From Actinomycetota bacterium (GTDB lineage: Bacteria > Actinomycetota > Actinomycetes > Nanopelagicales > Nanopelagicaceae): DNA of 64,000 nt. Positions 50,138 through 55,921 of the stretch are shown in pieces (the stretch's first letter is position 1; each line of letters starts with the position of its first letter). Position numbers and translations under genes: made by a program. The stretch covers positions 593-64,592 of the forward strand of contig JAPLAY010000004.1 in NCBI GenBank assembly GCA_026393035.1, read 5' to 3'. The notes below the pieces were generated by a model, which saw nothing but the letters and a program-made list of their open reading frames with translations, ran no database searches and was not told where the DNA came from.

Positions 50138-50232
50138 CATCAGTAACGGATCTTCGATGGAAGCCCACGGGATCTACTTCGATTAATTAATAGAAGGCCC
50201 GGAAGCCACAACCGAGGACCGATTCACTGATG
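50138..50232 (-). ncRNA. Structured pnp leader resembling the Actino-pnp RNA motif
   Basis: Minus strand CATCAGT..CGGTCCTCGGTTGTGGCTTCCGGG...CCCGTGGGCTTCCATCGAAGATCCG..ACTGATG forms a long stem-loop before pnp. Confidence 0.8.
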
Positions 50233-52829: not shown

Positions 52830-55535
52830 TTATGCGCGCTTCTTCTCACGTAACTCGTAGGTCTGAATGATGTCGCCAACTTCAATGTCCTTGAATGAAC
52901 CAAGTCCGATACCGCACTCGTATCCATCCTTAACTTCTGTTGCATCATCCTTGAAACGACGCAATGAATCTACAGTTAAGCCTTCGCCAACTAAGACGCC
53001 ATTTCGAAGAGTTCTAGCCTTTGCATTTCGCTTGATAGTTCCATCTTGAACCAAGCAGCCAGAAATATTTCCGAACTTACTTGATTTGAAGATGTCGCGA
53101 ACTTCAGCATTTCCAAGAACAACTTCTTCAAACTCTGGCTTAAGCAAGCCCTTGAGTGAAGCTTCAATCTCTTCAATTGCATTGTAGATAACAGTGTAGA
53201 AACGAATTTCCACGCCTTCAACTTCAGCGAAGATTGCAGTTTGTGGTTCTGGCTTAACGTTGAAACCAATAATTACTGCGGTTGATGCCGAAGCAAGAGT
53301 TACATCGCCCTTGGTAATTGCGCCAACACCACGGTGGATAACGCGAAGATCTACTTCACTACCAACATCGAGTTGTAGCAAGGCATCTTCCAGAGCTTCA
53401 ACAGAACCAGAAACGTCACCCTTAAGAATGAGGTTAAGTGTGCTGATCTTGGATTGCTCCATAAAGTCTTCGAGTGAAACCTTCTTGCGAGTCTTAGCAA
53501 GTAATGCATTTCGCATTGCGAGCTGACGCTTCTCTGCAATTTGACGTGCAGTTCTGTCATCTTCAGCAACTATGAATGTGTCACCAGCACCAGGAACGGA
53601 TGTGAATCCAAGAACTTGAACTGGACGTGATGGGCCAGCCTCAGTAACTGCATCGCCGTTCTCATCCAACATTGCGCGTACGCGACCAAATGCACCACCG
53701 GCGACAATTGCATCTCCGACGTGAAGTGTTCCGCGTTGAACAAGAACTGTTGCAACCGGTCCGCGACCCTTATCAAGGTTCGCTTCAATCGCAACACCAC
53801 GAGCAACATCATCCGCTATTGCGCGAAGATCAATAGCTGCATCAGCAGTTAGAAGAATTGCATCGATTAGCTCATCAATACCGGCACCTGATTTCGCAGA
53901 TACGTTAATGAACATGGTTGTTCCGCCATACTCTTCTGCAATCAAGTTGTACTCAGTTAATTGCTGACGAATCTTGTCTGGGTTTGCACCCTCTTTATCA
54001 ACCTTGTTTACCGCAACAACAATTGGAACATCTGCTGCTTGCGCATGGTTCAAAGCTTCAATTGTCTGAGGCATAACTCCATCATCGGCAGCTACAACTA
54101 GAACCGCAATATCGGTCACCTTCGCACCACGTGCACGCATAGCGGTGAACGCTTCGTGACCAGGTGTATCAATAAATGTGATTGCGCGATTTTGGCCTTC
54201 GTGATCATGATGAATTTGGTAGGCACCAATGTGCTGCGTGATTCCACCAGCTTCGCCACGACCAACTTCAGTCTTACGGATTGCATCTAGCAAACTTGTC
54301 TTACCGTGGTCGACGTGGCCCATAACCGTAACGATTGGCGAGCGCACAACTAGATCAGCTTCATCGATATCAGCGAGTTCTTGATCAAGATTAATATCAA
54401 ATTGTTCTAGAAGTTCACGATCTTCATCCTCTGGGCTAACTACTTGAATTTGATATCCAAGTTCGGCGCCAAGAAGCATGAAAGTATCTTCATCAACAGA
54501 TTGAGTTGCAGTAACCATTTCACCTAAGTGGAATAGCGCTGAAACTAACGCTGCTGGATCGCCACCGATCTTCTCGGCAAAATCCATAAGTGTTGCGCCA
54601 CGGCGCAAGCGAATTGCAGTCTTGCCATCACCATGCGGAATTACTGCGCCGCCAAGTGATGGTGCTGCCATATTGTCGAACTCTTCACGTAACGCTTTCT
54701 TACTCTTATGCGCTTTGCGAGATTTTCCGCCTTGCTTTCCAAATGCTCCTGCAGTTCCGCCACGTTGATGACGTCCGCCACCTTTACCTGCTGGACCACC
54801 AGTACTTGGTGCGCCGAATGAAGGTGCGCCACCAGCGTTTGGTGTGCGATACGGAGAAGACGGAGAAGAAGGTGCGCCAGTTGTTCCACCTGGTCGTGAA
54901 TTATTTGTTGGTCCGCCAGTTGTTGGACGCGCTTGTTGTGGTCGCGCTGCAAAACCTGGACGAACAGATCCTGGACGAGCACCAGACATTGGTGGACGTT
55001 CACCTGGACGTAATGGTCGTTGTGCTGGTGGACGTGGCATTGCATTTGTTCCAGATCCGAAAGGATTATTTCCGGCGCGTGGTGGACGTGGCATTGCAGG
55101 GGTGCCGGTTCCACCTGGAGAACCAAAAGCGTTGTTTCCGCCACGAGCTGGTGTTGGCGCAGCAGGTGTTGTTGGTGCGGCTGGAGCAGGTGCTTCACTC
55201 TTTGGTGGTGCAACTGGAATTTCACTTTGTGCTTTAGAAAGTTGTTCGCGCGTTGATTCAGGAAGTGCTGCAAGTGCAGCTTCAATCTCTTCTGCAGTAG
55301 GTGCTGCTGCTTTCTTCGCTGCAGTCTTCTTAGCAGCTGCCTTTTTGACAGGTTTTGGTGGCGCATCTGCTGCCTTTAGATCTGGGAATTTATCCATCAA
55401 CTTTCGCACAACGGGTGCTTCAACGGTTGATGATGCAGATCGAACGAACTCGCCGACTTCTTGTAACTTAGCGAGGAGCTCTTTGCTCTCTAAACCTAAT
55501 TCTTTTGCTAATTCGTAAACGCGGACCTTTGCCAC
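52830..55535 (-). CDS. infB: Translation initiation factor IF-2
   Basis: [25 protein letters not shown]; Pro/Gly-rich linker. Confidence 0.99.
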
Positions 55536-55574
55536 AGTTGCCTTCCTGTCTTGGCCCCACGTCTTAATTGGAGC

Positions 55575-55653
55575 CTAAATTAATGCCTTAATCATGAGCG
55601 CGCGGTGCTCATGGTTACTTGTTATCCCAGTTTGGGTTTGACTTGCTTGACAT
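55575..55653 (-). other. Chain of three mini-ORFs in the infB leader (MSSKSNPNWDNK*, MSTARS*, MIKALI*)
   Basis: AAGGAG 8 nt before ATG 55653; stop-to-start gap 2 nt, then an ATGA overlap. Confidence 0.6.
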
Positions 55654-55678
55654 AGCTTTCGCTCCTTATGTTTTTCAA

Positions 55679-55921
55679 CTAATTAATTAAAAACTTCTCC
55701 AACGCTTCTAGCGAAAGATTTTCATCTATTCGAAAGGCCCGTTGAAATGATCCTCGTTGCTTTGCGATATCGAAACAATTTCGATGTAGCCAAGCCCCGC
55801 GACCAAATTTCCGACGATCTTCATCAGGCAAAACCTGATTTCCGACCCGAACTACACGAAGTAGTTCACTGAAGTTCTCTCGCTTGCGACAAGCTATGCA
55901 GCTCCGAATCGGAATCGGCAT
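55679..55921 (-). CDS. YlxR/DUF448 family RNA-binding protein
   Basis: P.RSCIACR, LLRVV, GRGAWLH; between nusA and infB. Confidence 0.9.
   Translation of the reverse strand: MPIPIRSCIACRKRENFSELLRVVRVGNQVLPDEDRRKFGRGAWLHRNCFDIAKQRGSFQRAFRIDENLSLEALEKFLIN

Follow-up and report, generated by a model that had tools for sequence, protein, structure and literature searches.

What does a chain of very small reading frames do upstream of infB, which encodes translation initiation factor IF2? The question arises in the window analysed here, a stretch of 64,000 nucleotides from an Actinomycetota bacterium of the Nanopelagicaceae, taken from an assembly of 1.26 Mb. In this window 143 nt separate ylxR from infB, and three mini-ORFs follow each other stop to start within the spacer. 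The original prediction saw a candidate sensor in this chain: ribosomes would have to terminate and re-initiate repeatedly to cross the leader, so that IF2 or fMet-tRNA availability could set infB expression. Its description of the chain is correct base for base. All named elements lie at their minus-strand positions, and a recount of the spacer confirms its length and its three ATGs, all of which belong to the stop-start chain.

The gene order is rimP-nusA-ylxR-infB-rbfA-truB. The identities of rimP, nusA, infB, rbfA and truB are supported, with the rimP score marginally below the cut-off. The ylxR product matches the Pfam YlxR family above the cut-off and RnpM below it. The features of the locus are as follows.

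55679 to 55921, minus strand: ylxR (YlxR/RnpM family), the gene 5' of the spacer, with its stop TAG at 55681-55679
55662 to 55667, minus strand: Shine-Dalgarno sequence (SD) AAGGAG of the entry uORF, read from the sequence and from SD duplex energy
55615 to 55653, minus strand: uORF1, MSSKSNPNWDNK and stop, the entry ORF (sequence)
55592 to 55612, minus strand: uORF2, MSTARS and stop, which starts 2 nt past the uORF1 stop (sequence)
55593 to 55613, minus strand: genus-specific 7-bp hairpin containing the start codons of uORF2 and uORF3 (folding and comparison)
55575 to 55595, minus strand: uORF3, MIKALI and stop, joined to uORF2 by an ATGA overlap; its stop adjoins the 5' arm of the leader hairpin (sequence)
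55569 to 55575, minus strand: arm a, the 5' arm GGCTCCA of the leader hairpin, predicted anti-repressor strand (alignment and folding)
55553 to 55562, minus strand: arm b, the 3' arm, whose partner is either arm a or infB codons 3-6 (alignment and folding)
55541 to 55547, minus strand: infB SD (sequence and SD duplex energy)
55519 to 55527, minus strand: a', infB +9 to +17 (codons 3-6), the alternative partner of arm b (folding, alignment and codon use)
52830 to 55535, minus strand: infB, translation initiation factor IF2, with a GTG start at 55535, followed by rbfA and truB (gene match)

On the minus strand, arm a (55575-55569) faces TGGGGCC (55559-55553), and the b:a' helix encloses the infB SD and start codon. 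The TGA of uORF2's ATGA remains in the uORF1 frame, behind the TAA. Three relatives from the genus (L003, L009 and L029) have a genuine ATGA overlap at this junction. The second junction of L003 is a -8 instead of a -4 overlap and its uORF2 is one base shorter, which is either a variant or an assembly error.

Dinucleotide shuffling of the spacer produces a three-ORF ATG chain in 8 of 5000 cases. Under a looser rule, which admits ATG and GTG, a chain occurs in 24 of 879 upstream regions of the same genome. Seven other ATG chains in this genome are irregular in appearance. Rfam covariance models give no match within the spacer at E≤1. Elsewhere in the window, between rpsO and pnp, lies an ordinary Actino-pnp RNA (RF01688, 55.5 bits, 50146-50223, minus strand).

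The original prediction suggested that similar ATG/TGA chains precede infB in other actinobacteria, and proposed a comparison of ylxR-infB spacers across the phylum. We drew infB upstream regions from genomes picked by kinship, independently of the feature, and defined a chain as at least three ORFs of at most 16 codons, each starting within -4 to +3 of the preceding stop. This suggestion proved right. The chain is present in 89 of 93 genomes from other genera of the class and in 15 of 16 from the same genus, and in none of 21 from other classes; for shuffled upstream regions the corresponding values are 2.2%, 0.4% and 2.6%. Loci whose infB start could not be located were left out (L004, which lacks the infB 5' end, L025, L065, L067, L082, L120, L128, L134 and L137), as were genomes flagged as unpublished, four class genomes and lower-ranked matches from other classes. 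Three class genomes (G037, G044 and G077) with no match to ylxR or the IF2 N-terminus stand outside the counts.

Named loci, mostly from Streptomyces, have the chain in 71 of 80 cases. Seven of the nine misses are Arthrobacter leaders in which the last uORF exceeds the length limit; the other two leaders have two links and one link. With a limit of 30 codons, the chain is also present in 52 of 54 infB leaders taken from a single large family and a single order, and both misses have two links (five genomes of this set repeat earlier ones, and L253 was excluded as not being infB). All six recovered loci have it as well, with four links in an AT-rich sister genus. The leader type of the sister genus from the same family is also that found in Ca. 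Planktophila records, so the window presumably comes from a freshwater actinobacterium with a streamlined genome.

Some lineages depart from the common form. Four complete genomes of the sister genus (G047, G116, G073 and G097) yield no YlxR match; in two of them, G047 and G116, a four-link chain nevertheless precedes infB (L142 and L143). In L260 and L274 (family f80) the chain is down to two links and the predicted switch is weaker. The last uORF of Arthrobacter-type leaders (L168-L170, L211, L213, L221, L227 and L268) has about 23 codons and still ends at the foot of the hairpin. In most genomes of family f38 the IF2 N-terminal profile matches a second time, more weakly, in a frame of mostly 1000-1400 aa; this match is probably the IF2_N domain of actinobacterial RNase E.

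The chained starts and stops are kept across the class; the peptides are unconserved at this level. They vary by lineage (MSAR/MSTQR, MSTP/VKHQR, MKLK/MSSFRL), and among the leaders compared there are no class-level control codons and no arrest peptide. In other classes ylxR ends at most 21 nt from the infB start, with a -4 overlap in 10 of 20 cases. The chain was therefore likely inserted at a formerly direct, coupled ylxR-infB junction, a direction of change that we infer from the comparison.

The junctions themselves are regular. Of 240 junctions, 218 lie at -4, 5 at -1, 16 at +2 and 1 at 0. Successive ATGA words keep a spacing of 3n+2 in 161 of 187 cases. At 10 junctions GTGA takes the place of ATGA. 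If the spacer were an untranslated protein-binding or structural RNA motif, or a set of neutral repeats from duplicated ylxR-infB junctions, then the frame-keeping spacing and the GTGA substitutions would not be expected, nor would open frames be kept across barely similar sequences. Across the class, the chain region also shows no unusual degree of structure (mean z -0.22). The repeats do resemble one another, and the support for uORF translation is at the level of sequence. We consider this explanation highly improbable. For the whole spacer of this window the folding z-score is -1.37, which is not significant.

How would ribosomes enter and pass the chain? We computed SD duplex energies with an assumed anti-SD motif. 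The duplex of the entry uORF reaches -7.8 kcal/mol in the genus and -8.8 kcal/mol in the class, where it equals that of infB in strength (-8.6 to -8.8 kcal/mol for infB). Internal uORFs reach only -1.9 to -4.3 kcal/mol (-3.8 and -2.4 kcal/mol for the last two uORFs of the class). Strong SDs are thus confined to the entry ORF and infB. In 21 of the 80 class leaders that allow the ylxR stop to be placed, it is this stop that meets the third-last uORF. The premise of re-initiation gains from this pattern of internal uORFs without an SD and from work in E. coli, where, in the available part of the study, formylation of the initiator tRNA and IF2 favour re-initiation and an excess of IF3 lowers it (Yoo and RajBhandary; PMC2268962).

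The hairpin around the start codons of uORF2 and uORF3, which the original prediction also described, exists but is a local feature. It folds at -10.2 kcal/mol, and 14 of 15 leaders from the same genus keep all seven of its pairs, with changes in the loop. As a class-wide feature it was rejected, since only 1 of 89 other leaders attains six pairs.

The end of the chain is tightly placed. The last uORF has 5-6 codons in 96 of 104 leaders, and by geometry alone the last stop falls -3 to +6 nt from arm a in 104 of 106. Such a short last uORF would keep a ribosome at the prior junction off the hairpin until it restarts. The distance from the last stop to the infB start is 37-51 nt (10th-90th percentile), without frame preference, and infB has a strong SD of its own. 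It is therefore improbable that ribosomes reach infB by crossing the leader, as was originally suggested. The more likely output, which the original prediction missed, is a hairpin switch: arm b also pairs with infB codons 3-6, and this would close the infB start.

Three leaders (L040, L050 and L054; family f19, genus g20) keep the chain and have no hairpin. Their last stop lies 20-21 nt before infB, so a ribosome at this stop may itself cover the infB SD.

Arm b is complementary to infB codons 3-6, and the b:a' helix is part of the minimum free energy structure of this window. In a structure-blind MAFFT alignment of 48 leaders selected for diversity, pairing extends to 94.7% of cells for b:a' and 90.5% for a:b. 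Each helix shows 15 double changes, and none of 500 shuffles scores as high in either case. An ungapped anchor table gives 843 paired cells versus 819 ± 6 after permutation, with three leaders lacking an anchor; outer pairing appears weaker in this table because registers shift. The C-G to G-C change in b:a' reflects only about two independent events on an IF2 tree of 21 rows, in which L295 is only 20% filled (sign test, p 0.5).

The Arg codon of infB inside a' is CGG in 70 of 92 leaders versus 16% in the infB body, and the Val before it is never GTG, versus 29% in the body. In the same genus this Val is GTC in 15 of 16 leaders versus 17%. The Lys in a' is AAG in 85 of 88; the Lys eight codons downstream is AAA in 31 of 89. 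The synonymous positions of infB codons 3-6 are constrained. The infB of the same locus is a better partner for the arm than a foreign infB in 94 of 108 cases. Among 93 class leaders, the native arm-b duplex outranks every other infB window in only 16 and is among the top 5% in 34. In the predicted folds the two helices exclude each other, and the ribosome-binding site is closed in one of them, as in a leader-peptide translational attenuator.

Which state a ribosome would favour can be read from the folding predictions. With arm a forced to be single-stranded, opening the infB start costs 14.4 kcal/mol instead of 10.6; the cost goes up in 91 and down in 11 of 109 leaders. The same block raises the opening energy in 65 and lowers it in 2 of the named loci (n=72), and the counts are 51 and 1 in the family/order set (n=54). 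When a ribosome with a 28-nt footprint is moved along every second leader (53 in total), the average opening cost is 11.2-12.0 at positions -36 to -12 and 12.8 at -9; once the last stop occupies the A site, it reaches 14.6. Only the last of these positions shows a clear rise.

In this window a:b folds at -11.1 and b:a' at -9.5 kcal/mol, and a:b is complete in the transcript before a' exists. At equilibrium without a ribosome many leaders fold into the closed helix, and this leader is already closed (12.8 versus 14.3 kcal/mol) because the entry SD (55661-55665) can pair with arm a (55570-55574, minus strand). The open default therefore depends on co-transcriptional folding or on a ribosome on uORF1 (8.5). 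Given the pairing of the entry SD with arm a, the infB start is here predicted to be most open with a ribosome on uORF1, a possible extra layer of control.

Alternatively, the chain could act positively, by delivering ribosomes to infB or by melting an inhibitory hairpin so that infB is translated. Ribosome delivery by short ORFs is a proposed function of coupling (PMC12548453, in the part available), the direct ylxR-infB overlap of other classes fits it, and so do the three hairpin-less leaders and the 11 leaders in which the opening energy drops. Yet the long, frameless gap and infB's own SD speak against delivery, the predicted effect of melting arm a is a closed start in most leaders, and the constrained a' codons are given no role. 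We regard positive control as clearly unlikely. A translated relay combined with a switch is highly probable, and a repressive sign of the control is probable, if less so.

Could the control be transcriptional instead? An intrinsic transcription attenuator was rejected: no U-tract follows the hairpin (0-1 T in 96 of 101 leaders). Intrinsic termination is therefore unlikely and Rho would be the only route, with the chain keeping ribosomes on the intercistronic RNA as a shield. Overlapping ORFs in M. tuberculosis have been linked to reduced Rho-dependent termination (bioRxiv 10.1101/2022.06.01.494293, in the part available). A single longer ORF would protect equally, however, and a shield does not account for there being several junctions, for a last stop at a fixed place or for the b:a' helix. 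Such a role is very unlikely. A promoter and terminator scan found nothing above chance on the coding strand and no minus-strand terminator.

We propose that the spacer is a translational attenuator in which efficient serial re-initiation would shut infB and thereby place IF2 or fMet-tRNA supply under negative feedback; we give this complete account an even chance. The sequence shows an entry site for ribosomes, the SD of the first uORF or in some genomes the ylxR stop, and internal uORFs with no SD of their own. Internal uORFs would be entered only through termination and re-initiation, and the flux at the last stop would therefore scale as p^n. By its position and by predicted folding, a ribosome at the last stop would cover arm a and free arm b for infB codons 3-6, enclosing the SD and the GTG; we infer that the same happens in vivo. 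From the folding order, without a ribosome at the last stop a:b would form first during transcription and the start would stay open. If p depends on IF2 and fMet-tRNA, as the E. coli data suggest, IF2 shortage would de-repress infB, and perhaps rbfA-truB through infB. In a toy model with an arbitrary constant, one link flattens the output and at least two links make the output fall as p rises, so several links would be needed for net negative feedback. A review, in the part available, points out that a mutant tRNA was used when the IF2 effect was seen and that coupling also changes with IF1 and IF3, and urges caution (PMC12548453).

The same relay and repressive switch could also respond to re-initiation or termination in general: the balance of IF1 and IF3, ppGpp, RF2, slow CGA-UGA decoding or Arg-tRNA. 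Internal stops are UGA at 224 of 240 junctions, and IF3 overexpression lowers re-initiation in E. coli, according to the part available (PMC2268962). CGA directly precedes UGA at 148 of 192 ATGA overlaps, where other equally GC-rich NNA codons are rare. This bias, the sole codon trend at the junctions and one of GC-rich lineages, lies outside what the IF2 model explains and counts against it. But the ATGA overlap forces UGA, and the last stop is mixed (TAG/TAA/TGA in 49/40/18). AT-rich relatives, including this genome, have TCA, AAA, CTA or TTA in place of CGA, and the element stands before infB itself. A general input is rather unlikely in our view; for IF2 or fMet-tRNA as the sensed input the scales are evenly poised.

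Published records from M. tuberculosis bear on the chain. Smith et al. (2022) include the first uORF, MSTP and stop (3147962-3147948), among putative leaderless ORFs; a ylxR isoform has its stop in -4 overlap with this uORF, and the available text does not comment on infB (PMC9094748). For the internal starts the same part of that study lists no Ribo-RET peaks, but the 50 nt after leaderless TSSs were masked, so this absence carries no information. The table of Shell et al. (2015) has TSSs further upstream and, in 12 of 13 supplements, none at the first uORF (PMC4633059); this TSS is therefore presumably supported by the other TSS study alone. The element is undescribed in the literature searched, with most subscription journals outside its coverage, and term searches returned no mention of it in the available parts of PMC12548453, PMC9094748, PMC2965389, PMC6511841, PMC9031893, PMC5472188 and bioRxiv 2022.06.01.494293. 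RNA-library contigs, which carry no levels, ends or strand, span ylxR, the spacer and infB in three of four runs; this is presence only, and not proof of one transcript, and an uncovered stretch near the nusA-ylxR gap has no significance.

In the leader-peptide attenuators of ermC and cat, the position of a ribosome on a uORF decides which of two helices forms, and one of them closes the start. The infB leader is predicted to be similar, with two helices and a ribosome within reach of the anti-repressor strand. In contrast to ermC and cat, it has several ORFs without a class-level conserved peptide or stalling codons, its closing helix uses the target's own codons 3-6, and its predicted input is re-initiation rather than elongation arrest. 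GCN4 is under the same type of uORF re-initiation control as ATF4. The predicted logic here resembles that of ATF4, where, in the part available, efficient re-initiation on an inhibitory last uORF represses and scarce delivery of initiator tRNA de-represses (PMC12839439). The eukaryotic systems differ in measuring distance and timing of 40S scanning, without overlaps or a helix switch, and are not homologous. Tentatively, and a little short of even odds, actinomycetes would autoregulate IF2 through a purpose-built re-initiation counter, a bacterial counterpart of ATF4/GCN4 in which the series of stop-start overlaps would raise the efficiency of re-initiation to a power and a helix with the gene's first codons would convert this into repression. 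The taxa concerned are Streptomyces, Arthrobacter and Planktophila by record names and M. tuberculosis by the published ORF list.

Known termination-re-initiation coupling shares the -4 (ATGA/NUGA) overlaps and SD-poor downstream starts (PMC12548453, PMC2268962) and, in E. coli, the dependence on IF2 and fMet-tRNA (PMC2268962), as far as the available parts go. Here, unlike there, coupling is serial between non-coding mini-ORFs that likely serve as a sensor, and the last ORF does not overlap infB. Autoregulation of IF3 is established; as with infC, a translation factor's own activity would set the translation of its mRNA, whereas infC concerns another factor and uses a non-canonical start codon and the infB start is a canonical GTG/ATG (PMC5472188, in the part available). 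The rimP leader and NusA feedback act on the same rimP-nusA-infB operon, but through a transcription terminator with a U-tract upstream of rimP, outside the ylxR-infB spacer (PMC2965389, in the part available).

Coupling and attenuator helices are known parts; as far as we found, their assembly into a re-initiation sensor is new. In the literature searched we found no translational feedback on IF2 and no bacterial attenuator described as having re-initiation for its input. For the question of how bacterial ribosomes re-initiate, as 30S or 70S and with which factors (PMC12548453, in the part available), the leader would also offer a natural reporter that is ready to use. The chain is retained in a streamlined assembly of about 1.3 Mb, which suggests that its loss is costly. 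If the proposed attenuator is real, a whole class, including antibiotic producers, mycobacteria and abundant freshwater bacteria, would set its IF2 through re-initiation.
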